This document shows, one piece after another, positions 15,130-62,295 of a DNA stretch of 64,000 nucleotides. Source of the stretch: Escherichia phage vB_EcoM_VR7; sequence record NC_014792.1; one strand, 5' to 3'. Every line of letters begins with the position of its first letter. The stretch's first letter is position 1. A model generated the notes under the pieces. That model was given only the letters and a program-made list of their open reading frames with translations, did not search any database and had not been told where the DNA came from. A program made the position numbers and the translations under genes.

Positions 15130-15816
15130 TTAAATGCCTCTAAATTCATATATTAAAAGTTTAAGTGCACTAGGGGTTGTTTCGTATTTCCCTTTAAGTG
15201 CTTTAACCACGGCAGTTGCCCCACCGGGTTTACCTAATGAAAGCCAAATCTGATAGATTTCACTTTTCAACGGTTCATGCCAATGGGCAGCGGTTCTTTG
15301 AGCTTTAGATGTGGCTTCTGATACGATTTTATTTCCACCATTTGCGTAAAACTCATTCATTGCTTCTGATTGTCTGGATTTGCGTTCAGGCCTATTTTGA
15401 GCGGTGCTTTGAGCTTCCTTCATTTTGGCTTTGGTTTTTGGTTTGTTTAAACGCAATGTTTGGGCCAACTTCATTTCGTCCGTCCATTCGTATCCTTCAC
15501 CACCCTGTCCACCGGGTAAAATATTAATACAATTTGAACCATGTTTAGAATTTAATAATGATATTATATATCTTTCATGTTCAAACATCATTTCCCGATT
15601 CTGGTGACCTACAAACCAACGAATTTTATATTTGACCCCATATTTTTTATAGATATTCCAAAGTATTTTTCCAGAGCCAGGATATCGGTCTTTATTTGGG
15701 TCTAATACATTGGTCTCATGTTTACCACCATACCAAAAAACGCCTTTCGGCGTTTTAACTTTAATTATATAAGTTCTATAAAATTTTGCCTTAATAGCCA
15801 TGGTCCTGGCGCTCAA
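15130..15816 (-). CDS. putative GIY-YIG homing endonuclease (segF position)
   Basis: 228 aa; YIIKV...FWYGGKHE, EHERYII, NILPGGQGG; basic C-terminal DNA-binding-like region. Confidence 0.5.
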   Translation of the reverse strand: MSARTMAIKAKFYRTYIIKVKTPKGVFWYGGKHETNVLDPNKDRYPGSGKILWNIYKKYGVKYKIRWFVGHQNREMMFEHERYIISLLNSKHGSNCINILPGGQGGEGYEWTDEMKLAQTLRLNKPKTKAKMKEAQSTAQNRPERKSRQSEAMNEFYANGGNKIVSEATSKAQRTAAHWHEPLKSEIYQIWLSLGKPGGATAVVKALKGKYETTPSALKLLIYEFRGI

Positions 15817-16309
15817 AGTTGGCTTTATTTTTGAGATAATAAAGCTTGAATATTTGTTGTGCTGAGCATATTAAGACCAATAGCATATTGAATACAAGAA
15901 AGTGCATAATGTCAATTAGTTCAAATTTAATTTCAAGCTGGTCTTCAGGAGACATTTCTGAAATTGGTTTAGATTGAGCTTCGGTATAACGAGCTTTCCA
16001 TTTTTTCCACACAGCAGACGCGTCTTTCTCACCTTTAGACATTTCACCGAGAGAGGTCAGAAGCTCACGGAATTCGTCATCAATACAATCTTTTTGTTCG
16101 CGCATCCAGGCAACAACATCACCCGCGGTGGACAGTTTATCTGGATGATAGCAATATTCTCGGTCATTAGCCAGACGAACCTGCAATGATTTCTGCATAT
16201 CAAGCATAATCTGCAGCGGGTCATTACTAAAAGCAATAGCTTTAGTATAAGCTTCTTCGGCTTTGTCAACACCAGCAATCAGTTGTGAACATTCATTAAA
16301 ATGTGCCAT
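15791..16309 (-). CDS. 56: dCTP/dUTP pyrophosphatase (MazG-like)
   Basis: 172 aa; MAHFNEC N-terminus and EFRELLTSLGEMS...KWKARY match recalled T4 gp56. Confidence 0.85.
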   Translation of the reverse strand: MAHFNECSQLIAGVDKAEEAYTKAIAFSNDPLQIMLDMQKSLQVRLANDREYCYHPDKLSTAGDVVAWMREQKDCIDDEFRELLTSLGEMSKGEKDASAVWKKWKARYTEAQSKPISEMSPEDQLEIKFELIDIMHFLVFNMLLVLICSAQQIFKLYYLKNKANFERQDHGY

Positions 16310-18840: not shown

Positions 18841-19231
18841 AAACGGGGGTTTCCAGAATTTTCAAAAGACTGTTTTTGATGTACTTGCTAGGGATACTTG
18901 CATTAATAACATCATCAACTAATTCGCTGTTGTGATTAATATTGTTGAATTCAAACCCTTCAAATGTTACTTTATGAGGAACACCCCCAGAAAACAGATG
19001 TGTCAATTCAATCATTGTATTACGCGTAAGCGGTTTGGTTACCATTTTAGGGAAATCTTTCCACTGATTTAATTCTTTGTTAAGAAGTTTATGAGCAAAT
19101 ACAATTCTATCATCACTATCAACAAGAAAATAACCCAGATATTGAATCTCGTCGCTCCAAAACACCCTGTAGGCCTGTGCATTTGGATTTTTACAACGAA
19201 GTTTTTTGATAACCAAATTTCTGTTAATCAT
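18794..19231 (-). CDS. hypothetical protein with duplicated C-terminal cassette
   Basis: start moved to MINRNL (AGGTGA RBS); ends SVDDQIFNAFMKRD. Confidence 0.5.
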   Translation of the reverse strand: MINRNLVIKKLRCKNPNAQAYRVFWSDEIQYLGYFLVDSDDRIVFAHKLLNKELNQWKDFPKMVTKPLTRNTMIELTHLFSGGVPHKVTFEGFEFNNINHNSELVDDVINASIPSKYIKNSLLKILETPVYSVDDQIFNAFMKRD

Positions 19232-19232
19232 T

Positions 19233-19526
19233 TTATTCACCTGTAACTTCTTTGACGATGTTTTCATTTTCAAAGTTAGGGTCACAATACAACACGTAAT
19301 TATACTGCATAACCCCACCAGATGCCAACTGGTCAGATACTTCTTTGACCTTGTTTAGTTGGTCACGTTTAGTGATGTTCATGATGTCCGCGTAAATCTG
19401 GTGTTCAACTGCTTCCTGGTCAGCGGTCATTGACCACTCACAAAGGTCTTTATCATAACCAGCGGTAACTGGAGCTGCGTGACATGAAGCGAGGACTAAG
19501 ATTGCTGCGATAGATAACTTTTTCAT
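19233..19526 (-). CDS. sp: spackle periplasmic protein
   Basis: 97 aa; signal peptide; GYDKDLCEWSMTADQ and GGVMQYNYVLYCD recalled from T4 Sp. Confidence 0.7.
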   Translation of the reverse strand: MKKLSIAAILVLASCHAAPVTAGYDKDLCEWSMTADQEAVEHQIYADIMNITKRDQLNKVKEVSDQLASGGVMQYNYVLYCDPNFENENIVKEVTGE

Positions 19527-19554
19527 TTGAATCTCCTTAGTAGTTGATGGGATA

Positions 19555-19583
19555 ATATTAAATCATTATTATCCCGTTGTACA
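19555..19583 (-). promoter_or_regulatory. early promoter cassette
   Basis: TGTACA-N17-TAATAT then TATCCCATCAACTACTAAGGAGATTCAAATG. Confidence 0.55.
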
Positions 19584-19586
19584 CAC

Positions 19587-19883
19587 TTATTTTACTTTAG
19601 CGTAATCTAAAGTCACTAACTGCGGTTCCATTGCCAATTGACGTTGACGACGGAGGACTGATGCACGGACATACACGCGAAATGCCTTTTTGCATTGGCG
19701 AATCTGACGCTTAGTTGGACGAACATCAAATTCATAGAATTCTACAAAGTCCATTTGTCCCTTGGTTTGTTGAGAAATAATAAGTTCCCAACGACTGTTT
19801 ACGCGGTCTGCATAAAACTTGTGCTTACCAAAAGACTTGTCCCAAAAACCACTTTTTACGGGTTTCATAATTTGAATAATCAT
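19587..19883 (-). CDS. small basic protein, RPTKRQIR-motif family
   Basis: 98 aa; VRPTKRQIRQCKKAFR. Confidence 0.5.
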   Translation of the reverse strand: MIIQIMKPVKSGFWDKSFGKHKFYADRVNSRWELIISQQTKGQMDFVEFYEFDVRPTKRQIRQCKKAFRVYVRASVLRRQRQLAMEPQLVTLDYAKVK

Positions 19884-20212
19884 TTTTCACCTTCCACAGA
19901 TTGACCAGTCATTTTGTAATATTCTTCGCGAGCATTATATAACGCAAATTCAATATCGCTGATGCAAATTTCTTCATTTTCCAGTTGAGATTCAACTGCC
20001 AGGATTAAACTACGTAGGGCTGCACCTTTACGTAAATCAATTTTATGATGACATTTTCCATTAACAAATGCTTCTACCTTGGCGTTGTGTGTATCCGCAG
20101 TTTTGTGTGCATACCAATGAATCCCAGCAGGATGTAATGACACTACACGATTATAAGCTGGAAAACCCAACGGGGTGATAACCAGAGTCACTTCAACTTT
20201 ATCAGTAATCAT
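19880..20212 (-). CDS. hypothetical protein
   Basis: 110 aa coupled ORF. Confidence 0.5.
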   Translation of the reverse strand: MITDKVEVTLVITPLGFPAYNRVVSLHPAGIHWYAHKTADTHNAKVEAFVNGKCHHKIDLRKGAALRSLILAVESQLENEEICISDIEFALYNAREEYYKMTGQSVEGEK

Positions 20213-20415
20213 TTTGTTTCCTCACTACGCCAATCTGATTCAAAAACTAGATTATCACCAACAAATGCTTTAACTAACGCATTATTAACTTCAGCAAATT
20301 GTGAAGTGACCCACTGGATTTGGTCTTTATCGGATACGTCCAGAGTCATTTCTTTAGTAAACATATTACCATTTTCAAACCAACCAATAAACATAACTTT
20401 GGCTAAATTTCCCAT
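20209..20415 (-). CDS. dmd: Dmd, antitoxin against RnlA/LsoA-type mRNA endonucleases
   Basis: 68 aa; VMFIGWFENGNMFTKEMT...QWVTSQFAEVNNALVKAF matches recalled T4 Dmd. Confidence 0.75.
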   Translation of the reverse strand: MGNLAKVMFIGWFENGNMFTKEMTLDVSDKDQIQWVTSQFAEVNNALVKAFVGDNLVFESDWRSEETK

Positions 20416-21195: not shown

Positions 21196-22634
21196 TAGAA
21201 TTTCATCTGTGCCGCAAGGTCGTCCAGGTCGCTCCTGTTGACCCTGGTTTGTCTATTCATTTCAGCCTGACGATTCATCTCACCAGTGGCTTCTTTCACC
21301 GTAGGGCCTTGTTTAGGAGCTGAATCATCATCAACCTCATACCAGCGCTGATTACCTTTCTTAACACCCATCTTGAATTTATTATAGTAGTTCTTATCGC
21401 CATAACGAGACTTAAGCTGTTTGATTAACTGCAGTCCCATTTGAGCGAATTCTTCGGTCTCAACAACACCCAACATAAAGTCAGCCGTGTGCGCAATACC
21501 AAAGGATTCTGCGATGTCAGCCATGTCAATCTCAGCTGCAACGTTCGCGCCCCTGGTTGTCTGTGCTGCAGTCCACAGGACCACATTTTTCTCGACCGCC
21601 AGACCACGAAGTTCTTCTGCAACCATCTTAATCAGGCCGTAACTGTTTTCGGTAAACGTTTTCAGTCTTGAGCTTGCGCAGATTGCCAGGTAGTCAACAA
21701 TAATCACATCCGGTACAAATCCTTGCTTCAGTTTGTACTCGTTCAGTAATGCACGGAAGGTATCCGCATGCGCACCCCCAGTTGGATATTGTTTTATCTT
21801 CAGAGTCCCGAGAGTCCCGGAAGCGCGCCATTTTTCCATTTTACTTTTGTATTCTGCCCATGATATATGACCTTCATCAATATCATCCAGAGATACATCC
21901 AGCAAGTTGGCATCAATACGTTTGGCACATACTTCTTCAGCCATTTCCATGCTTATATAAAGAACATTATGGCCAGTCTGAAGATAGTCAGCAGCTAACG
22001 AACAAAGTCCCAGAGATTTACCAACGTTTGTCCCGGCCAGTAAAACGTTCTCTGTTCCATACTCAACTCCGCCCTTCGTGATTTTATTCAGGATGTTAAT
22101 ACGGAACGGAACTTTCTTCGATTTGTTTAGATAAGTCTGGAATCGAGCTTCGTAATCGTTTAACCAGTCATGACCCAGAGCAGAGTCAAAACAGATAGAC
22201 AATGCATCGCGCATGATGTCAGGGATAGCACCAATATCCGGGATTCGTTTATCACGTTTATCTTTCGGAAGTTCGGCATTACTCTGAATTTCGATAATCC
22301 TGGATGTTGCATTGAACATCGCAGATTTCTGCACATACTTCTCGGTTTCTTTAACCAACCATTCCTGGTCTTCTGGAGTATCAGCCAGGACTCCTAAAAG
22401 TTTCTTTGTGCCTTCATATTCAACTTCAGAAAGGTCAGAACCGTCGAGTGCGATATCAAGTGCAGTCTTAGTTGGAACTGCTTGATATTCTTTTACATGT
22501 TCGTTAATCGTATTAAAAAGGGTCTTCGCAGGACCCTTTTCAAAATATGTGTTATTCAGATATGGCCAGACTTTAACAAAATATTCCTTGTTAAAGAGTA
22601 GCTGGGATAAAATAGTTTCTACCACTTCCACCAC
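21195..22634 (-). CDS. 41: replicative DNA helicase (DnaB-like)
   Basis: 479 aa; Walker A AGTNVGKSLGL; track start is likely GTG; strong resemblance to recalled T4 gp41. Confidence 0.9.
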   Translation of the reverse strand: MVEVVETILSQLLFNKEYFVKVWPYLNNTYFEKGPAKTLFNTINEHVKEYQAVPTKTALDIALDGSDLSEVEYEGTKKLLGVLADTPEDQEWLVKETEKYVQKSAMFNATSRIIEIQSNAELPKDKRDKRIPDIGAIPDIMRDALSICFDSALGHDWLNDYEARFQTYLNKSKKVPFRINILNKITKGGVEYGTENVLLAGTNVGKSLGLCSLAADYLQTGHNVLYISMEMAEEVCAKRIDANLLDVSLDDIDEGHISWAEYKSKMEKWRASGTLGTLKIKQYPTGGAHADTFRALLNEYKLKQGFVPDVIIVDYLAICASSRLKTFTENSYGLIKMVAEELRGLAVEKNVVLWTAAQTTRGANVAAEIDMADIAESFGIAHTADFMLGVVETEEFAQMGLQLIKQLKSRYGDKNYYNKFKMGVKKGNQRWYEVDDDSAPKQGPTVKEATGEMNRQAEMNRQTRVNRSDLDDLAAQMKF

Positions 22635-22963
22635 CTCTTTTTCATTTTAATCTTATCAATTTCATCTTGTATTTGCATTGTAACACACTTTTCTACATGC
22701 ACTGCAAGCTCCGCTTTGCGGTCTTCAGAAGGGGTGCCGAAATCAACTGAAACTTTTCCAGATGGTTCAATTTTAATTCCGGTTACGTACACAATGTGAC
22801 TGGACCCATCGGGAAGTGATAACAGAATTTCCTGTCGTACAGTTCCCATGGATTGCCGGATAATCTCCAAACTTTTTTCGTAGTAAGGTACAGAAGGAGC
22901 CTTAGCTCCCTCCGCATCTTTCTCGAAATTATCTAAATCAGATAAATCGATATCATTCATCAA
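22619..22963 (-). CDS. hypothetical protein in gene 40 position
   Basis: 114 aa between uvsX and gp41; C-terminal KKRWWKW; position only. Confidence 0.45.
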   Translation of the reverse strand: MMNDIDLSDLDNFEKDAEGAKAPSVPYYEKSLEIIRQSMGTVRQEILLSLPDGSSHIVYVTGIKIEPSGKVSVDFGTPSEDRKAELAVHVEKCVTMQIQDEIDKIKMKKRWWKW

Positions 22964-24131
22964 GGTCTTCCATCATATCTAAATCGTTTTCGATATCTGC
23001 CGCAGATGGTTTTGTCTTACCTACCGGAGCAGAGTATTTTTCAACCTTGGAGGCAATAAGCTCATCAACTTCGGCATCAACAACAGCATTGCTATCGATT
23101 GCACCCAGCTGGTAATGACGTTTGATTGCATCACGGAAAGGTTCGTGCTTGAACAGTGGGCCCCAGAATTCGGTGCAGTTGGTATCTTTTGCGCGCCATG
23201 ATTTTTCTTCGCGGACCATTTCACCGGTCTCAACATCAAGATATTCACGGTTATACCAACCAACTTTCGGTTTCACCACAAATCCGATTTCCATTGCCAT
23301 ATCAAGCAGGCCAGAATACGGGTCAATACCCCCATCAAATTTTACATCAATGAAGAATTTGCTTTTCTCTTTGACCATACGAGATTTTTCGGCGTTCAGA
23401 ACAAATTGGAAACCTTCCAACTCTTTACCAGTTTCTTTAATCTGGCGTTTACCGATAATGAATACGGTGTCCGCAGAATACATAACACCTGTACCACCAG
23501 TCATAACGGTTTTGCTATACATCTCAATCGTCTCGATTGTATGGTTAACCGCGACACAAGGAATATCCTTGATACTAAAGAACGGGGTTACAATACGGAA
23601 CAGAGATTTCAGGGATTTAGCACGAGTCATATCGCCGACGACTTTTTCGTTCAATGCATCTTCTGTTTCTTTTTTCGATGCCATGTTACCGATTGAGTCA
23701 ATAAAGATAATGACTTTTTCGCCACGCTCAATTGCTTCAAGCTGGTTAACCATATCAACTTTCAATTGTTCAACCGACTGGATTGGTGTATGAATAACAC
23801 GTTCCGGGTCTACTTTCATTGCACGAAGATATGCTTCTGTGATACCAAATTCTGAATCATAGAACAAACAGATTGCTTCGGGGTATTTGTTCATATATGC
23901 AGAGACCATCGTTAAACCCATATTGGATTTAAAGTGTTTTGACGGACCAGCAAAAATAGTCAAACCTGACTGCATACCACCATCTAGTGCACCGCTGATT
24001 GCAATGTTCAGCATCGGGATTTTTGTACGAACTACATCTTTATCATTAAAGAACTTGGACTTGGTAAGAGTCGCGGTCATTTTGGATGTAGAAGCTTTAA
24101 TCAAACGGGATTTCAAATCTGCAATAGACAT
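22953..24131 (-). CDS. uvsX: UvsX recombinase (RecA-like)
   Basis: 392 aa; Walker A GPSKHFKS; RecA-like core. Confidence 0.9.
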   Translation of the reverse strand: MSIADLKSRLIKASTSKMTATLTKSKFFNDKDVVRTKIPMLNIAISGALDGGMQSGLTIFAGPSKHFKSNMGLTMVSAYMNKYPEAICLFYDSEFGITEAYLRAMKVDPERVIHTPIQSVEQLKVDMVNQLEAIERGEKVIIFIDSIGNMASKKETEDALNEKVVGDMTRAKSLKSLFRIVTPFFSIKDIPCVAVNHTIETIEMYSKTVMTGGTGVMYSADTVFIIGKRQIKETGKELEGFQFVLNAEKSRMVKEKSKFFIDVKFDGGIDPYSGLLDMAMEIGFVVKPKVGWYNREYLDVETGEMVREEKSWRAKDTNCTEFWGPLFKHEPFRDAIKRHYQLGAIDSNAVVDAEVDELIASKVEKYSAPVGKTKPSAADIENDLDMMEDLDE

Positions 24132-24210
24132 TCATTTTTTCCATAGGCACCATTATATTTTTCTCACAGGTTTAAGATAGGATAATTATATCACTGTATT
24201 TTTAGAGCAA

Positions 24211-24339
24211 TTAACGATTGAATCCACGATTAATTGCACGTTCAACAATCTTCCGGGTCTGACGTTTGTCCCACCAGTACATAAAGCCAATACCAAATGC
24301 AGACAACAGCCATAGACTAATCAATAGCATACCAATCAT
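24211..24339 (-). CDS. small membrane peptide
   Basis: about 42 aa, MIGMLLISLWLLSAFGIGFMYWW...; approximate. Confidence 0.3.
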   Translation of the reverse strand: MIGMLLISLWLLSAFGIGFMYWWDKRQTRKIVERAINRGFNR

Positions 24340-24372
24340 AATATTTTTCTCTCGGTTGTTTAGAAATTAATG

Positions 24373-24876
24373 TTAGTTAATACCTTGACGAGCTTTCTCT
24401 TTAGCTACACATTTATTAATATAGCTCAGACGGTTTTGAGCAGAACGCTGATACATATCGCGATACTCATTAGCCTTAGGAGAACCCGTCTCTGCTGCCT
24501 GATAAGCTTCCGCACGCATGATGTTTATCTGCATATTGATGTATGACATGCAGACCTGTGAAATCTGGTTAACAGTATCCAGGTCATTTTGTCGCTTGGT
24601 TTCTGCTTCCAGTTTGGCAATGATTTCGTCATGCTTCGCAGCTTGTTCGCGTTTGTACTCAATTTCACGTTGAGCATATTTTGCGCAATTGTTTCCACAT
24701 TGATTATTGGCGCGTTTGTAGATAAGTCCAGTGCCACCTTTGAAATCAAAGGAACCATTATGCACCTGACGGTCTGCAGCAATTCGCGCTTTACCAATCT
24801 CACTGGCATTAACTACATCACCCTGGTAAGCACAACCAGATAGCAGCATAACAGCTGCGATAGCTAACTTTTTCAT
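24373..24876 (-). CDS. putative lipoprotein
   Basis: start moved to MKKLAIAAVMLLSGC (lipobox); occupies the beta-gt/42 slot. Confidence 0.5.
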   Translation of the reverse strand: MKKLAIAAVMLLSGCAYQGDVVNASEIGKARIAADRQVHNGSFDFKGGTGLIYKRANNQCGNNCAKYAQREIEYKREQAAKHDEIIAKLEAETKRQNDLDTVNQISQVCMSYINMQINIMRAEAYQAAETGSPKANEYRDMYQRSAQNRLSYINKCVAKEKARQGIN

Positions 24877-24884
24877 TTTATTTC

Positions 24885-25028
24885 CTAATTGAAACATTCA
24901 TAACGGGCTTGGAGCCCCAAAAATACCCAACCCAAAATTAAAGTTGGAACCATATGCGGAGTCATTATTGCCCAATAGATTGACATACTAAAAAATGCAA
25001 TCAGTACAATAATTGTAATTATCTTCAT
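24885..25028 (-). CDS. small membrane peptide
   Basis: about 47 aa, MKIITIIVLIAFFSMSIYW...; ATGA overlap with upstream stop; approximate. Confidence 0.3.
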   Translation of the reverse strand: MKIITIIVLIAFFSMSIYWAIMTPHMVPTLILGWVFLGLQARYECFN

Positions 25029-25267
25029 TTGGTTTCCTTGATGATAATTACTTGTGCGTTTGATTTACGTTCAGCAACGAGTGCCCAAATCAATGCAATT
25101 ACCCAACCAATCATCGTCCACCCAAACAGAAGGTTGATGAAAAAGATTCCGACATTGCTTCGGGTGCCACGCAGTAATGCGATAATCCACGGTAGAAAAT
25201 ATGCCAATGCAGCCAAGAATAAAGAACCAGCGCCAAGAACAAAAGTACCCGCAATTATTGTTTCCAT
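25025..25267 (-). CDS. small membrane protein, possibly Imm-like
   Basis: 80 aa, two hydrophobic helices; position just downstream of gp43 as T4 imm. Confidence 0.4.
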   Translation of the reverse strand: METIIAGTFVLGAGSLFLAALAYFLPWIIALLRGTRSNVGIFFINLLFGWTMIGWVIALIWALVAERKSNAQVIIIKETK

Positions 25268-25312
25268 TTTAATATCCTCAAGTTTGTCTAGTCATCAGTA
25301 GTTGATGAAAGA

Positions 25313-25341
25313 ATAATACGGCAATCCATTGCCGTTGTAAA
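25313..25341 (-). promoter_or_regulatory. early promoter cassette
   Basis: TTTACA-N17-TATTAT then TCTTTCATCAACTACTGATGA. Confidence 0.5.
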
Positions 25342-25344
25342 CAC

Positions 25345-28059
25345 TTAAAAGTCAAACATATCAAAAAGAGTTGCTTTCTTTTCGTAATCAACCTTTGCAG
25401 CTTCAGAGAAACCTGTCAATGGCTTAACAAAAGTCTTCTGGAACAGTGTGTTGTAGTCCATCCATTGCAAGACCTGGTCGCGGATTTCAATCGGGAGTTC
25501 AATCCCTGATGGCCATGCAATCACAGTTTCACCAAACGGGTTACCGACTTTAAGAGGAAGCACATACACTTTTTCCCCTTCCATGATTTGCGGAACAGTC
25601 TTCAGACCTTTAGTTGCACGCATATAAGCGAGCACACCTTTGATATGAGCCGGGCACTTAAATCCAGGGAAACCACCTTCGTTATATTTCTGGATGTTGT
25701 TAACCGATGATACACCCGCGATGGTCATGTAGTTAAGCTCATTAAATTCCTTGTTGAATTCCTTGAAGTATGTCTGCAGAGATTCTTCACCTTCTTGCAG
25801 CATACGGCGGATACATTCTTTCAGGGCTTTCTGACATGCCTTTGGAGTACTCGACTTTTGAGTTTCCAGACCCATGATTTTTAGTTTCGGAACAGCATAT
25901 CGTGTGCCTTCCATATCATATACGTTCAGTGCATAACGCTTCTTCGCTGTCCAGAAACCGCCAACACCTTTAGAACCCAGCGGTGGACATGCAATTGCTT
26001 CACGGTCCATAAACATAAGGTGCTGTTTGTTGTTCATGTATTCAGCCAGTTCACGGAAAGCTTTATCGATTGCCGGTTCCAGGCGGTCTTTTGCAAACTT
26101 GTCCATGAAGTCAACCAGGTGGTTTGTATCACGGAATTTAGATTCGCCACCAACCTTTTTAATCAGGTTATCGCACTGGATATAAATGGAGTCAGTATCA
26201 CCATAGAATACGTACGTCTCACCACTTGTACCACACACACCATCAAAGTATTCGTTAACTTTACGTTCAATCCACTGCAATGCCAACTGACCGAAAGATG
26301 TAATCGCAGTTGCATTTCGCAGGTCAAAGTAACGGAACCAGATATTACCCAGAGCACCATAACAGCTGTTGATAAGCAGTTTACGGTTAATCTGCGCGGT
26401 CATGCCAGCAACTTCTTCCATCTGTGCTTTATACAGCATACCGTTCAGGACGGTTTGATTCAGACCATGTAAGGTTGTTTTCATATTGTCATCAAAGTCA
26501 TGACGATAATCAACTTCTGGTTCGGTTGTGCCAGTTCCTGGATTACTCAGAGCTTCCTTAATCAGTTCACCATTACGTTGGGCAGCAAGCATATAACCTT
26601 TGTGTTCTTTTCGTTGATTAAAAACTTTCTCAACTTCTGTCGGAATAATACCCGCAACATCTTTAAAATACATCATACCATTTGGCGCGCAACTAAATGC
26701 ATCAGATGGCCGGTCAGCAGTTCCTGCGATGTATTCGTGCATATGGGCTGGTGCAAATGACCCGGCAATCGTTTCTGGACTGATGTTAATCTGTCGGATG
26801 ATGCTCGGATAAAGAGATGTTAAGTCGCAGCTCATTACATATTTGTATGCGTTCGGAATCGGTTCCTTAACAAATGCACCAGGGAACGATTGACGAACAT
26901 GCGATTTAGTTTCAGGGATAACCTTGTTTTGAGTCTTCAGGCTGTTAAAGATAATCGCATCCCAAGTTTTGATTGGGCTGAATACAGACTGAATCTGCAT
27001 CTTTGCATAATAACCCATCGATTGGCTCAGGTTAATGAACTGTCGCTTACGGTCAATCTGCACAACACGATAAACGTCAATGATGTTATAGCTGATGTAA
27101 CGTTGGTGATTGGATTCACGCAGTTTAGAAATCGGGCCATCATACGGGAGTTTACCAACACCCAGCTCAGATTCCGCAACATAGTCCAACGAGTAAGATG
27201 GTTGGTTTGTGAAGCTGAACTTTTTGTACAGGTCCAGATAATCCAGAACAGAGACACCCAGAATCTGAATGATTTCTTGTTCTTCACCAAAGCCGTTGTT
27301 AATGACCTTAACTTTTGTACGACGATGTGGGCTCAGACGTTTGGCCGTAGCTTCACCAAATACATTTTTAAGGCGGTTGTAGATATATGGAATATCAAAT
27401 TTCTCGATGTTCCAACCAGTTAACATAACCGGAGTTTTCTCGTTCCAGAATACCAAATACTGCTGGAGCATTTCTTCTTCTGAATCAAATGCCATATAAA
27501 CAATTTTTTCAAGGATTTCACTCGGGACTTCATCACCACCATCTTCCTGCAGCTTAGCAGCAATATCAATAGACCATTGCTCCACAGTAGCGTATGGTGA
27601 GCCCAAAAGGTCAAAGACATAGAATTTATCGTCTACCGAATCATAGTGCGTCAGGGCATCAATAGGGTGACGTGCTTCAGACGGCTCAGGGAACCCATCA
27701 GGAGATGTCACCTCGATATCGAAGTTAGCAACACGGATTTTACTTGAATCGTATTTGATTTCATGTGGGTAACGGTCGCTCAGGTATGCGAGTTTGAAAT
27801 CGTCCATACCCATAGCTTCGAGGCCCATATCGTTCATGCGCTTCATCCACTGGGATGCATCACGCATGGAATCAAACTCTTTTTTCACACAGCCTTTATT
27901 ATAGATGTCTGAATATTTTGTTGCTTGGCCTTCACGAGCGTGCATAAAGAGACAAGGAGTATATGGAATTTCACGGGTTCGCTCATTACCATTCTTGTCA
28001 ATATAACGTTCGTGAAGATTATCGCCGATTTGTTCGATAGTTAAATAAAATTCTTGCAT
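25345..28059 (-). CDS. 43: DNA polymerase (family B)
   Basis: 904 aa; exonuclease FDIE, polymerase YGDTDS motif. Confidence 0.95.
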   Translation of the reverse strand: MQEFYLTIEQIGDNLHERYIDKNGNERTREIPYTPCLFMHAREGQATKYSDIYNKGCVKKEFDSMRDASQWMKRMNDMGLEAMGMDDFKLAYLSDRYPHEIKYDSSKIRVANFDIEVTSPDGFPEPSEARHPIDALTHYDSVDDKFYVFDLLGSPYATVEQWSIDIAAKLQEDGGDEVPSEILEKIVYMAFDSEEEMLQQYLVFWNEKTPVMLTGWNIEKFDIPYIYNRLKNVFGEATAKRLSPHRRTKVKVINNGFGEEQEIIQILGVSVLDYLDLYKKFSFTNQPSYSLDYVAESELGVGKLPYDGPISKLRESNHQRYISYNIIDVYRVVQIDRKRQFINLSQSMGYYAKMQIQSVFSPIKTWDAIIFNSLKTQNKVIPETKSHVRQSFPGAFVKEPIPNAYKYVMSCDLTSLYPSIIRQINISPETIAGSFAPAHMHEYIAGTADRPSDAFSCAPNGMMYFKDVAGIIPTEVEKVFNQRKEHKGYMLAAQRNGELIKEALSNPGTGTTEPEVDYRHDFDDNMKTTLHGLNQTVLNGMLYKAQMEEVAGMTAQINRKLLINSCYGALGNIWFRYFDLRNATAITSFGQLALQWIERKVNEYFDGVCGTSGETYVFYGDTDSIYIQCDNLIKKVGGESKFRDTNHLVDFMDKFAKDRLEPAIDKAFRELAEYMNNKQHLMFMDREAIACPPLGSKGVGGFWTAKKRYALNVYDMEGTRYAVPKLKIMGLETQKSSTPKACQKALKECIRRMLQEGEESLQTYFKEFNKEFNELNYMTIAGVSSVNNIQKYNEGGFPGFKCPAHIKGVLAYMRATKGLKTVPQIMEGEKVYVLPLKVGNPFGETVIAWPSGIELPIEIRDQVLQWMDYNTLFQKTFVKPLTGFSEAAKVDYEKKATLFDMFDF

Positions 28060-59371: not shown

Positions 59372-59943
59372 TTACGACATTCCTCAATAAAAGAGTTTAA
59401 TGTATTTTTCTTTGTGATATTGTCATATACCTTTTTAACTTTAGAAATACGAAAAGGTACTTCAATAACAGAGGTCCACAAAAATGATGCGATAATACCT
59501 GCAATGGCCGCAGATACTGCTGCCCCGAATACAGAAATAGGCAAGTCATTTTTCGTTGTCAGGAAAAACCACAGGATTGGAAAAAATAGTATTCCCATCC
59601 AAACATAGAACCTGGAGCACACCAACTTGTCATATTCATCGCTCCATGTACGAAAACCATATTTTTCACTATAACAAATCAATGGGTCAGGTGTTTGTTC
59701 TTTATGCGGTTCTGGTTGCCAGCCTTTAACGATGTGCTTCATTTTATATTCCTCAATTAAAAGCTCTTTCATATGACGGTTACAATGCGACCAATCAACG
59801 TTTTCCACCTTGATTCCTTCATCACCATCATCAAGGTTTGCCCAATATCTTTTGGTAATCATAAATTCATCTCTTGGAACTGGAATACCCGCACATCCAC
59901 CTTTCATATCACCCATGCAACCGGGTTCATACATCATTACCAT
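59368..59943 (-). CDS. membrane protein
   Basis: 191 aa; Cys-rich N-terminus, C-terminal hydrophobic helices. Confidence 0.5.
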   Translation of the reverse strand: MVMMYEPGCMGDMKGGCAGIPVPRDEFMITKRYWANLDDGDEGIKVENVDWSHCNRHMKELLIEEYKMKHIVKGWQPEPHKEQTPDPLICYSEKYGFRTWSDEYDKLVCSRFYVWMGILFFPILWFFLTTKNDLPISVFGAAVSAAIAGIIASFLWTSVIEVPFRISKVKKVYDNITKKNTLNSFIEECRK

Positions 59944-60623
59944 CCCTCCATAGGGAATTCCAGATATACTTGGGCATTAACGCGGATTTCATTGGTAATA
60001 TTTTTAACACGGTCAGTGTTACGAGATACACGACCAAACCAACGCCAACCATTGCGCACTGTCTGGGAACCAGTATGCCAGGTATGACAATTAAACTGCA
60101 GGAGTGTGCGGTCAGGAGCTTCCCATTGCTCTAATTCACCTGATTCAATTTTAGCCAGAACTTCTTTATGCCATTGGCGATAAATCAGTTCACCTTCTGG
60201 GATTTCACTAAAGGTGGCTTCGCCTGTAGCAAAATGGGTAGGACACACATCAGCGTTAACAAGACCAAGAATGTGTTCAGACATATAGCGAGGGTTGTCA
60301 TAATCTGGTTGACCCGCAGTAATAAAATGTTGTCCAGTTGGAATGGGTGGACGCGGAACATCATCATGATGATAGCCAGGGATAGCTGGATACCAACCCG
60401 GCATTAACATATGCACACGTGAATCAAACACAACATGTTGATTAGTCCAATCAATTGGGAGATTGGCAATAAAGCTACGAGTGATTGGACCACCATTATC
60501 CCAAGCAAAACTCAAATCACAGTTAAAAAACATTGGTTCATTTTTGATTTGGTCATTTTGTACGTTATGTGCAAAACCACCAACTGCACGAGCTTGACTA
60601 TTAAAAGTTTTAGGACCGTTCAT
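59937..60623 (-). CDS. hypothetical His-rich protein, possibly a metal-dependent oxygenase-like fold
   Basis: 228 aa; YHHDD and CHTWHTG spaced roughly as an HxD...H triad; weak. Confidence 0.45.
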   Translation of the reverse strand: MNGPKTFNSQARAVGGFAHNVQNDQIKNEPMFFNCDLSFAWDNGGPITRSFIANLPIDWTNQHVVFDSRVHMLMPGWYPAIPGYHHDDVPRPPIPTGQHFITAGQPDYDNPRYMSEHILGLVNADVCPTHFATGEATFSEIPEGELIYRQWHKEVLAKIESGELEQWEAPDRTLLQFNCHTWHTGSQTVRNGWRWFGRVSRNTDRVKNITNEIRVNAQVYLEFPMEGW

Positions 60624-60682: not shown

Positions 60683-61333
60683 TTATTTTTGTCTATTATA
60701 ATATTTCAATTCAGCGGCGCGACGTCTTTCCATTGCTTCGTCGCGAGAATCACCATAGTAAAGTTGGATTTCTTTATGATTAACAGTAATATATGATATC
60801 CATTTACCTCTGTCTTTTCTAAACTTGACACCTGTAATTGGACCAGGTGAATCTTTTCGGGTATCCTGGTCAAATGACTGTATTGATGATGAAGCCCATT
60901 CGCAAGTTTCTTTACTGTATAGCTTACATGAATTTATCCGATTAATGCTTGTACCTGCTGGACGAATACCCATATCTTCAACAAAATTCAAATAACCAGT
61001 TTTTCCCTTTGGTAGCCACCTATCACATATTTGTACACCAGCGCCACCATACTGCTTCCAACGATGATGGTTAGGATTTGTACACCTTTCAATCATGGCA
61101 GCATACGATGAATATGTAGGTTTGTCAGAAATAAATGAATAATGATATTTCTGACAGCCGCATGATTTGGTTTTACCTGATTTTATACGAGCGGCGGCTG
61201 TGACAAACTCTTTACCACAATGACAAATACAATTCCATTTAGTAGAAACTCCAGCGGTTTTATATGCTACCGAAACAAATTTGATTCCATTAATAATTTT
61301 ACCAGTCAAATCTTCTAATGGTCTTCCCATCAT
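60683..61333 (-). CDS. putative homing endonuclease-like protein with AP2-type DNA-binding domain
   Basis: 216 aa; zinc knuckle CICHCGKEF...CGC; INRINSCKLYSKETCEW motif; C-terminal GVKFRKDRGKWISYITVNHKEIQLYYG...AAELKYY is AP2-like. Confidence 0.5.
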   Translation of the reverse strand: MMGRPLEDLTGKIINGIKFVSVAYKTAGVSTKWNCICHCGKEFVTAAARIKSGKTKSCGCQKYHYSFISDKPTYSSYAAMIERCTNPNHHRWKQYGGAGVQICDRWLPKGKTGYLNFVEDMGIRPAGTSINRINSCKLYSKETCEWASSSIQSFDQDTRKDSPGPITGVKFRKDRGKWISYITVNHKEIQLYYGDSRDEAMERRRAAELKYYNRQK

Positions 61334-62295
61334 TCATCCTTTTTGAATGGTTTAATTAAATGCTGGTTAGCCTTAAAACGTTTAATATAATCGTCATGAC
61401 CTAAAGCATTATACATACTTATAATTTTACCATAATTTTCATATGCGAAGGTGCGGAACCATCCAGAAGTAATGGAGGTACAGACTTTTTCTAGTGCAAT
61501 ATGGAAGCTCACGGATGGAGATATACTAAACTCGTTAGGAACCTGCGAACGCTCCAGAGCGAGTACACATGCTTCTTCATAAACCCCTGCCAGTTTAATA
61601 ACATCAGGGAGTGCTTCAAATTTTTCACGTGAGGTCATGACTTCTGAATCATCCTTCATATAGAACTTATATGCAGGCTTATCAGCAAGCGCCACGGCCT
61701 CGTGGATGGAGTCATGGTCAAGGGTATAGATTGTATCATTAAAGAAAGTTTTCTTGCCCACGTCTAGTTTAGGGTGACTATATGACAGTGTTTCTGTCTG
61801 ACGTTGTAACATGATTTTCTGCAGTTCATCATTAAGAACAACACCCTTATTACGAAGGTAATTAATATGGCTCATGGTCTTCAGGAAGAATGGATTGTTC
61901 TTCAGATAACGATGAGATAATTTAATTGCCAGACAAATATCAGGAGTCGCCCAGTAAAAACCAGATAGACGGTCCTTTTTAATATGATTTTCAGCATATT
62001 TCAGGAGACGATAACTTGAGGTGAAATCTTCGTCTTGAAGCTCGCCAGTAATTTCTCGTACGTTGGTCAGGGCACGGACAATATAAGCTTCAAAATAGGT
62101 TTCTTTGCCATTGTACATACATTTAAAAGCTTGGACATCAGGGTTATCCACAGGAACATGAGCACCGAACATACGTGCTTTAAAGTGGTTCCATGAGCCT
62201 TGGTCGGCAATGAAATCCCAATCAGAGTTTTCAATTTTCTGACTTTCAATCAGACCAGCGTTATGTAATGCACGAGAACCAATAACTAACATCAT
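61330..62295 (-). CDS. hypothetical protein, possible nucleotidyltransferase fold
   Basis: 321 aa; N-terminal IGSRALHNAGLIESQKIENSDWDF loosely fits GS...DxD; weak. Confidence 0.4.
   Translation of the reverse strand: MMLVIGSRALHNAGLIESQKIENSDWDFIADQGSWNHFKARMFGAHVPVDNPDVQAFKCMYNGKETYFEAYIVRALTNVREITGELQDEDFTSSYRLLKYAENHIKKDRLSGFYWATPDICLAIKLSHRYLKNNPFFLKTMSHINYLRNKGVVLNDELQKIMLQRQTETLSYSHPKLDVGKKTFFNDTIYTLDHDSIHEAVALADKPAYKFYMKDDSEVMTSREKFEALPDVIKLAGVYEEACVLALERSQVPNEFSISPSVSFHIALEKVCTSITSGWFRTFAYENYGKIISMYNALGHDDYIKRFKANQHLIKPFKKDE

Follow-up and report, generated by a model that had tools for sequence, protein, structure and literature searches.

Between uvsX and gene 43 of Escherichia phage VR7: a probable superinfection-immunity corner without the cytosine-modification cassette, and a candidate route to 5-methylcytosine in the genus Gaprivervirus

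Background

In phage T4, the interval between gene 43 (DNA polymerase) and uvsX (RecA-like recombinase) is arranged in the order 43, imm.1, imm, a gene for a 48-amino-acid (aa) peptide, 42, beta-gt, segA and uvsX, in which 42 and beta-gt encode the deoxycytidine monophosphate (dCMP) hydroxymethylase and the beta-glucosyltransferase. In the Dhakavirus phages JS98 and C6 the order is 43, imm, a peptide gene, a lipoprotein gene, a five-gene cassette of 4.2 kb, a small-peptide gene and uvsX, and the Mosigvirus phage F27 has a related slot with a larger cassette. T4 Imm sits in the inner membrane and prevents superinfecting T-even-type phages from passing their DNA through the envelope. Here we describe the corresponding interval of Escherichia phage vB_EcoM_VR7 (NC_014792.1), as contained in a stretch of 64,000 nucleotides (nt) called the window below. 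An original prediction, made from the letters of the window, had described this slot as occupied by small membrane and lipoprotein genes.

The lack of gene 42 throughout the genus Gaprivervirus has already been published as an unexplained paradox, since the deoxycytidine triphosphatase (dCTPase), DenA, DenB, Alc and Ndd are all kept (PMC8056088, PMC12115623). VR7 DNA itself was digested by Gordeeva et al. with and without T4 beta-glucosyltransferase pretreatment, and their conclusion is that "VR7 has modified cytosines" (PMC6326788 Fig. S4). In the same conclusion the DNA of VR5 and T4 is given as glycosylated and that of T4147 as hydroxymethylated, VR7 DNA being not glycosylated and not called hydroxymethylated (PMC6326788).

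Two precedents exist for another modified cytosine. In phage XP12, 5-methylcytosine (5mC) fully replaces cytosine, and the enzyme concerned is a folate-dependent dCMP methyltransferase (PMC8543423; PMC5175136); a 1982 paper announces in its title "a new thymidylate biosynthesis" in XP12-infected cells (listed in PMC8543423). In addition, the thymidylate synthase (TS) variants N177D of E. coli and N229D of L. casei are described, in the citing text, as switched to dCMP and as yielding 5-methyl-dCMP (Hardy & Nalivaika 1992 and Liu & Santi 1992, cited in PMC8670742).

Gene content of the uvsX-gene 43 interval

On the map of phage vB_EcoM_VR26, the window corresponds to the left end of the genome, from rIIA onward, and it belongs to a T4-like phage of the genus Gaprivervirus (Tevenvirinae). 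By megablast, VR26 is 98.5% identical to positions 23800-25700, and about 30 further Gaprivervirus records are 87-97% identical to the same positions. We conclude that the slot is very probably the conserved superinfection-immunity corner of T-even-type genomes from which the cytosine-modification cassette is missing. Taken by itself, the slot is ordinary: it contains a known immunity gene with conserved small neighbours.

The lower boundary of the slot is uvsX (22953-24131, minus strand, an open reading frame (ORF) of 392 aa; UvsX of VR26 is 79% identical to T4 UvsX) and the upper boundary is gene 43 (25345-28059, minus strand, 904-aa ORF, annotated as gp43 in all relatives). Between them lie four ORFs, all on the minus strand, and the coordinates and sizes originally proposed for them proved largely right. 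Read from gene 43, these are an 80-aa gene identified below as imm (25025-25267), a 47-aa membrane-peptide gene (24885-25028), a gene for a predicted 167-aa lipoprotein (24373-24876, starting with MKKL behind an AGGA Shine-Dalgarno sequence) and a 42-aa membrane-peptide gene (24211-24339). The last two are separated by a 33-nt junction (24340-24372, minus strand), running from the lipoprotein stop to the start of the 42-aa ORF, which is the site of the cassette in Dhakavirus. Because all four are conserved across genera in the relatives, they are more than chance ORFs. The proposed translational coupling through ATGA overlaps was found once, between the imm stop and the start of the 47-aa gene; the lipoprotein gene starts 8 nt past the TAG stop that precedes it, and the 42-aa gene 33 nt past the lipoprotein stop. 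The calls of membrane proteins agree with hydropathy for the 80-aa, 47-aa and 42-aa products, which have hydrophobic segments, and in the lipoprotein they extend to the signal peptide only.

The 80-aa protein is identified as Imm itself by family and by identity. It matches PF14373 (Imm_superinfect) with 66.1 bits (cutoff 27.9, E 2.5e-18) and phrog_1039 (E 1e-30), is 51% identical to T4 Imm over its full length (E 3e-27) and 73% identical to C6 Imm, and its ortholog is annotated imm in VR26, SP18 and others. It has two hydrophobic segments in total (residues 3-33 and 39-67), and its gene sits 77 nt downstream of the gene 43 stop. The claim that a T4-type imm had been displaced from the slot is thus contradicted by the 80-aa gene. 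The product most likely acts as in T4, and the suggestion of an envelope-acting superinfection module holds to the extent that imm is present, not in the sense of a set of genes standing in for 42 and beta-gt.

The 47-aa peptide belongs to phrog_3610 (E 1.7e-26), has two hydrophobic segments and is 49-57% identical to C6 ORF48 and F27_51. Its ATGA overlap with imm is kept in T4, C6, F27 and JS98. Directly after T4 imm, and with the same ATGA overlap, we found a 48-aa homolog (MKSKIIAALLLILMIIISIYYSVTVPLMIPTIILGWSLLLLQVKYECIN; 50% identity, E 2.7e-13). We therefore regard the 47-aa peptide, from homology and position, as a conserved partner of imm. The T4 ORF for this membrane peptide lies in the gap between imm and gene 42 (NC_000866, about 26230-26370, minus strand) and has no RefSeq annotation.

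The 167-aa protein has a signal peptide with a lipobox LSGC at Cys15 (MKKLAIAAVMLLSGC), which fits the pattern [LVI][ASTVI][GAS]C, and Ala at +2; its sole hydrophobic segment covers residues 3-18, and in an alignment of 10 homologs L12, S13, G14 and C15 are invariant or nearly so. The rest of the protein contains an invariant CGNNC motif and a C-terminal helical hairpin. It is assigned to phrog_1754 (E 2e-47) and is 50% identical to the orf43-type protein of Dhakavirus C6/JS98 at the same location, with further homologs in Karamvirus-like, Enterobacter, Kosakonia, Serratia and Edwardsiella T4-like phages. By these matches, its gene has stayed beside imm in many genera of the Tevenvirinae. Under the +2 rule of E. 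coli, Ala at +2 leads to outer-membrane sorting, which suggests that the mature lipoprotein may be sorted to the outer membrane. Cooperation of the lipoprotein and the 47-aa peptide with Imm may be envisaged from their conserved adjacency.

Similarity between the lipoprotein and T4 Imm.1 (38% over 58 aa including the signal peptide, pairwise E 7e-7) is confined to the signal peptide and the first ~40 mature residues, and nothing aligns past residue ~59. An AlphaFold2 model built from a 10-sequence alignment has an overall predicted local distance difference test score (pLDDT) of 70.6, exceeding 90 at residues ~100-160; its N-terminal part is poorly defined and its C-terminal helical hairpin is confident. 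A Cor-type exclusion lipoprotein (phrog_1119) was considered and rejected, the match (E 0.027) covering residues 8-24 only, which is the signal peptide.

Finally, the 42-aa peptide has one hydrophobic segment (residues 1-21), a net charge of +5 and a basic C-terminal tail, RKIVERAINRG. It was found in 15 phage records, all Gaprivervirus, at 95-100% identity; it is missing from SP18 and EAWsc9, replaced by another peptide of 35 aa in VR25, and accompanied by that peptide in RZ. Pfam and PHROG gave no family for it. A 41-aa homolog (MLGPLLLFIGLLLFSFGALLLLVWLEKREVRKIVDKAINRGIK) was detected at the same position in JS98 (47% identity over 36 aa, E 4e-7), the two sharing the tail RKIV(E/D)xAINRG. 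On this conservation we regard the 42-aa ORF as a real, accessory gene. The JS98 ORF (EF469154, about 21950-22075, minus strand) is unannotated, overlaps the end of orf38 and lies just upstream of the uvsX promoter. Among Gapriverviruses, the gap between the lipoprotein gene and the uvsX promoter (24211-24372) is a hotspot for tiny membrane-peptide genes: VR26, VR20 and DK-13 carry the 42-aa peptide there, and SP18 and EAWsc9 carry neither peptide.

The cytosine-modification cassette

In JS98 the cassette comprises orf38-orf42 (22069-26243), between the lipoprotein and small-peptide genes, and it is placed likewise in C6. Its Dhakavirus products are two proteins of 132 aa and 297 aa, together with nucleotidyltransferase-like (557 aa), P-loop kinase-like (178 aa) and TS-like (232 aa) proteins, of which the TS-like member is a divergent gene 42 product with about 25% identity to T4 gp42. 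The set looks like a nucleotide-sugar and transferase pathway for glycosylation of 5-hydroxymethylcytosine (hmC). Phage VR5 has the Dhakavirus-type lipoprotein gene at the Dhakavirus position and its DNA is glycosylated, which fits a cassette for glycosylated hmC. Taking Dhakavirus and Mosigvirus together, the cassette encodes the TS-like 42, a nucleotidyltransferase-like protein of ~560 aa, a HAD-sized 130-aa protein, a P-loop kinase-like protein and a protein of ~298 aa, and the Mosigvirus version adds a protein annotated as a collagenase-like protease.

None of this was recovered in the present genome group. The C6 and F27 cassette proteins had no tblastn match at E<=0.01 in the window or in the complete VR26 genome; T4 gp42, the F27 TS-like protein and C6 ORF43 had no tblastn match in the window, and the sole TS-family match in VR26 is td. 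The alpha- and beta-glucosyltransferases (alpha-gt, beta-gt) had no match at E<=1 in the window or VR26 and none is annotated in VR26, and T4 Dam had no tblastn match in the window or the complete VR26 genome. A Pfam scan found no glycosyltransferase or TS family among the larger ORFs of the window. The original statement that no TS-like or glycosyltransferase-sized ORF occurs is accordingly sound for families and not for size, because ORFs of 305-336 aa do exist. It had also named the rest of the genome as the place to look, and in the complete genome of the relative VR26 neither gene 42 nor a glucosyltransferase was found. A functional substitute is nevertheless probably encoded elsewhere, by td.

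Since homologs of the cassette proteins were not found in the window or VR26, the membrane genes are read as the conserved flanks of a slot from which the cassette was lost cleanly. They are not replacements occupying the place of 42 and beta-gt, as had been thought, given that the same genes are conserved neighbours in the gene-42 phages T4, JS98, C6 and F27. The TS-like 42 and the nucleotide-sugar and transferase genes (42 and beta-gt in T4) would have disappeared together, as one block, and 33 nt remain at the site. Because the other Tevenvirinae genera examined keep gene 42 here, parsimony points to a loss in the lineage of Gaprivervirus.

An aspartate-type thymidylate synthase

The only TS-family gene of VR26, td, lies outside the window (NC_028957, 144745-145605, minus strand), in the usual frd-td-nrdA position, with frd overlapping td. 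The stretch GLPFNIASY of JS98 Td and E. coli ThyA corresponds to GLPFDIGSY in VR26 Td, which places Asp at the position of E. coli Asn177. In an alignment of TS-family proteins, Asp is found here also in T4 gp42 (Asp179) and in the gene-42 proteins of Mosigvirus and Dhakavirus. VR26 Td was searched against 5.8 billion proteins and the best 120 clusters were compared: four have Asp, all from Gaprivervirus (SP18/VR26 type and vB_YenM_P8 type), and the other 116 have Asn. The Gaprivervirus clusters are 85-98% identical to VR26 Td and the next ones drop sharply to <=70%. The slot is empty both in SP18 and in Yersinia phage vB_YenM_P8.

The substitution is not isolated. Near the active site the Asp clade also has F149L, Q162L, A179G and A182G, at positions that are otherwise invariant, and its mean identity to the Asn clade is 65%, whereas the Asn clade is internally 90% identical. 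All four Asp-type clusters retain the PF00303 TS fold and the catalytic Cys alongside Asp for Asn177, and VR26 Td keeps His147, the catalytic Cys-His (PCH motif), the insertions specific to phage Td and the full TS C-terminus. From these residues, we infer that the Asp-type Td may be a dCMP methylase making 5-methyl-dCMP.

The annotation of VR26 contains 56, cd, 1, frd, td, alc, denA, denB and ndd. In three-way identity between VR26, JS98 and T4 (gp1, alc, denB, gp56), only denB and td stand out, in a comparison limited by mosaicism; gp1 and alc are about equally divergent across the three lineages and hence uninformative. The Gaprivervirus denB product (VR26 169434-170027) is 38-42% identical to JS98 and T4 DenB, JS98 and T4 being 62% identical to each other. 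Beside alc, VR26 has a second, truncated alc-like ORF of 77 aa (138495-138728). Within the window, the gp56 dCTPase/dUTPase homolog noticed at the outset is indeed present (15791-16309, minus strand, 172 aa, 76% identity to T4 gp56, E 3e-88).

A possible route to 5-methylcytosine

On these residues and gene contents, we lean slightly towards the view that the lineage kept a modified cytosine, with the Asp-type Td methylating dCMP instead of, or besides, deoxyuridine monophosphate (dUMP). In such a route, gp56 would convert dCTP and dCDP to dCMP, and the Asp-type Td would convert dCMP to 5-methyl-dCMP, Frd recycling the dihydrofolate. The product is predicted to be raised to 5-methyl-dCTP by gp1 and the host nucleoside diphosphate kinase, and gp43 would put it into DNA. 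Deoxythymidine monophosphate (dTMP) could be supplied by residual TS activity, by host ThyA or by Cd, which is predicted to deaminate 5-methyl-dCMP; such a deamination is reportedly the thymidylate route of XP12. The retention of gp56, Alc, DenB and DenA would then be due to the cytosine being still modified, as 5mC. The combined account, in which the slot has lost its cassette and the 5mC route operates, appears reasonably probable to us. Its full evolutionary version seems evenly poised between right and wrong: the Gapriverviruses would have swapped hmC for 5mC, the cassette being lost, the TS retooled, dTMP obtained through deamination of 5-methyl-dCMP, and the dCTPase, Alc and DenB retuned to distinguish C from 5mC.

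Several points weigh against this account. The td evidence comes from relatives, the gene lying ~80 kb beyond the end of the window, and in the literature searched we found no enzymology or nucleoside analysis of a Gaprivervirus. Acceptance of 5-methyl-dCMP by gp1 is uncertain, as is its deamination by Cd, and a single Asn-to-Asp change is no proof of methylation over hydroxymethylation. E. coli McrBC and McrA restrict 5mC DNA, which such DNA would have to face, and no arn homolog is annotated in VR26. For the slot, the roles given to the lipoprotein and to both peptides are drawn from adjacency only, and a Foldseek comparison of the lipoprotein model with viral structures returned the JS10 ortholog alone, with no functional analogue. 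Lastly, the "modified cytosines" of VR7 are, in the statement concerned, a reading of restriction digests (PMC6326788).

The original prediction held that the DNA is probably not modified by glucosylated hmC, and on this it was well founded: neither 42, alpha-gt, beta-gt nor a cassette homolog was found in the window or VR26, and VR7 DNA is reported as unglycosylated (PMC6326788), so that glucosyl-hmC is very unlikely. From the same absence of gene 42 and glucosyltransferases in the window and VR26 one may go further, in line with the original prediction, and propose ordinary cytosine, with gp56 serving mainly as dUTPase and supplier of dUMP and the four membrane genes acquired as a new exclusion module replacing 42 and beta-gt. 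The presence of gp56 homologs in gene-42-less T4 relatives of the RB49 and RB43 types (PMC2993671 Table 4) speaks for it, as does the reported full block of VR7 by the bacteriophage exclusion system BREX, like that of the unmodified phage VpaE1 (PMC6326788). However, all four genes have homologs at the same position in gene-42 phages and hence are not replacements, and VR26 has retained alc and denB; in T4 these genes are directed against DNA containing unmodified deoxycytidine, and their distribution otherwise tracks gene 42 (PMC8056088). Moreover, dTMP synthesis by a TS with Asp177 would be poor, although VR26 has no other TS, and VR7 DNA is reported to have modified cytosines (PMC6326788). 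With denA and ndd kept as well, a gp56 working chiefly as dUTPase on plain-cytosine DNA is disfavoured, unmodified cytosine in Gaprivervirus DNA is probably wrong, and we consider this explanation as a whole quite improbable.

Equally improbable, in our estimate, is an Asp-type Td that evolved into a dCMP hydroxymethylase and gives non-glycosylated hmC DNA, like that of T4 alpha-gt/beta-gt mutants. The Asp is shared with T4 gp42 and the Mosigvirus and Dhakavirus gene-42 proteins, and BREX is reported to block VR7 as strongly as T4147 with its unglucosylated hmC (PMC6326788); on the other side stand a complete TS scaffold with 49% identity to E. coli ThyA, His147 where hydroxymethylases have Thr, the C-terminal tail and the frd gene still overlapping td. 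The wording of the digestion experiment points the same way, since T4 beta-glucosyltransferase pretreatment was used and T4147 is called "hydroxymethylated" there and VR7 only "modified" (PMC6326788). Some other cytosine derivative, made by an unrecognised non-TS enzyme, with the Asn-to-Asp change in Td incidental or serving another purpose, is unlikely, although less so than the two preceding explanations. Such a protein or base has been proposed (PMC8056088, PMC12115623), many VR26 genes have no assigned function, and several ORFs not in JS98 have no Pfam match. Against it, the VR26 regions not in JS98 are mostly homing endonucleases, internal proteins and small ORFs, with no enzyme-like family; the larger proteins without assigned function (228 aa and 321 aa) are common to hmC phages and many unrelated phages and so do not track gene-42 loss, and the Asp switch correlates perfectly with the genus. 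A tblastx difference map of VR26 against JS98, with a Pfam/PHROG scan of ten ORFs from the regions not in JS98, gave homing endonucleases, a GIY-YIG/T5orf172-like protein and unassigned proteins, and no enzyme-like candidate.

That gene 42 is missing from Gaprivervirus was already known, and the Asp-type Td is a concrete new lead on this published open question. If true, 5mC would resolve the paradox, and the change would illustrate a one-residue evolutionary route between base-modification systems and how phages shift between DNA-modification chemistries. It would also bear on how these therapy-candidate phages evade, or succumb to, restriction, BREX and type IV systems, on their predicted transduction behaviour, and on the sequencing and cloning of Gaprivervirus DNA. 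In addition, two small conserved genes are missing from the reference annotations, namely the 48-aa ORF after T4 imm and the 41-aa ORF before JS98 uvsX.

Intergenic signals and neighbouring features

The region upstream of uvsX (24132-24210, minus strand) is conserved and contains a middle-promoter-like site: a MotA-box-like TTGCTCTA at 24203-24210 is followed, after a 12-nt spacer, by TATAAT at 24185-24190. By comparison with the T4 middle-promoter consensus, this is a putative middle promoter of uvsX. Hundreds of T4-like phages, from Tequatrovirus and from Klebsiella and Enterobacter, match the first ~74 nt of the slot at ~85% identity, and this upstream region is far more conserved than the flanking coding DNA.

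At the other end, the signals after gene 43 (25313-25341, minus strand) consist of a hairpin ACGGCAAUGGAUUGCCGU with a U-rich tail (25318-25335), which overlaps a sigma70-like TTTACA-17-TATTAT sequence; the consensus scan gave 10 of 12 promoter matches and a 7-bp stem. The RNA fold of 25268-25350 has an energy of -19 kcal/mol (z = -3.2). These elements are putative signals, and an Rfam scan of 23900-25600 returned zero matches.

The region 22953-25267 is a recombinational mosaic. UvsX is identical to that of VR25 and the slot is VR26-like; within the slot, the lipoprotein, 47-aa and 42-aa genes are VR26-like, and the central part of Imm (RGTRSNVGIFFINLLFGWTMIGWVIALIWA) agrees with VR25 and not with VR26. 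The window and VR26 differ between sp and gene 41, a variable spot: two small ORFs of 110 aa and 68 aa in the window (19880-20415) stand opposite an unrelated 188-aa ORF with no family match in VR26 (19225-19791).

Towards the far end of the window, a 228-aa protein (59937-60623; phrog_1843, no Pfam family) was considered as a replacement enzyme and rejected, because it occurs widely, in Mosigvirus and Dhakavirus with their hmC, in phages of Aeromonas and even in mycobacteriophages. A 321-aa DUF7275/DUF7277 protein (61330-62295) was rejected on account of the same wide spread, hmC phages included. Between them lies a gene for a 216-aa HNH homing endonuclease (60683-61333), the 321-aa protein having the domain order DUF7277+DUF7275. 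Both proteins range from T4-like coliphages to phages of Aeromonas, Acinetobacter, Gordonia and Mycobacterium, and both are missing from T4.

Comparison with known systems

With T4, the locus shares its position between 43 and uvsX, Imm (51% identity), the ATGA-coupled peptide (50%), a lipoprotein gene next to imm and the region upstream of uvsX (~85%). It differs in that the window is without gene 42, beta-gt and segA and has an extra 42-aa peptide, and in that the T4 lipoprotein Imm.1 (125 aa) is encoded upstream of imm, whereas that of the window (167 aa) is encoded downstream. Dhakavirus (JS98, C6) and Mosigvirus (F27/RB69-type) have the same order of imm, 47-aa peptide, lipoprotein (Dhakavirus) and small peptide, but their slots carry five to seven extra genes (the TS-like 42, the 557-561-aa protein and others) that are not in the window or VR26. 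Cor of phi80 and N15 and Llp of T5 resemble the 167-aa protein in being small phage lipoproteins of outer-membrane type beside an exclusion gene; a functional analogy is possible, without homology between them.

Regarding the enzyme, the Gaprivervirus Td has the same residue switch as the engineered TS variants N177D and N229D, and adds F149L, Q162L, A179G and A182G. Its likeness to XP12 would be in predicted chemistry, that is, folate-dependent transfer of a methyl group to the nucleotide dCMP by an enzyme of the TS family and possibly a deaminase route to dTMP. XP12, however, is an unrelated siphovirus, whereas the Gaprivervirus enzyme would be a derivative of a T4-type Td in its original place, embedded in the T-even exclusion system of dCTPase, Alc and DenB.

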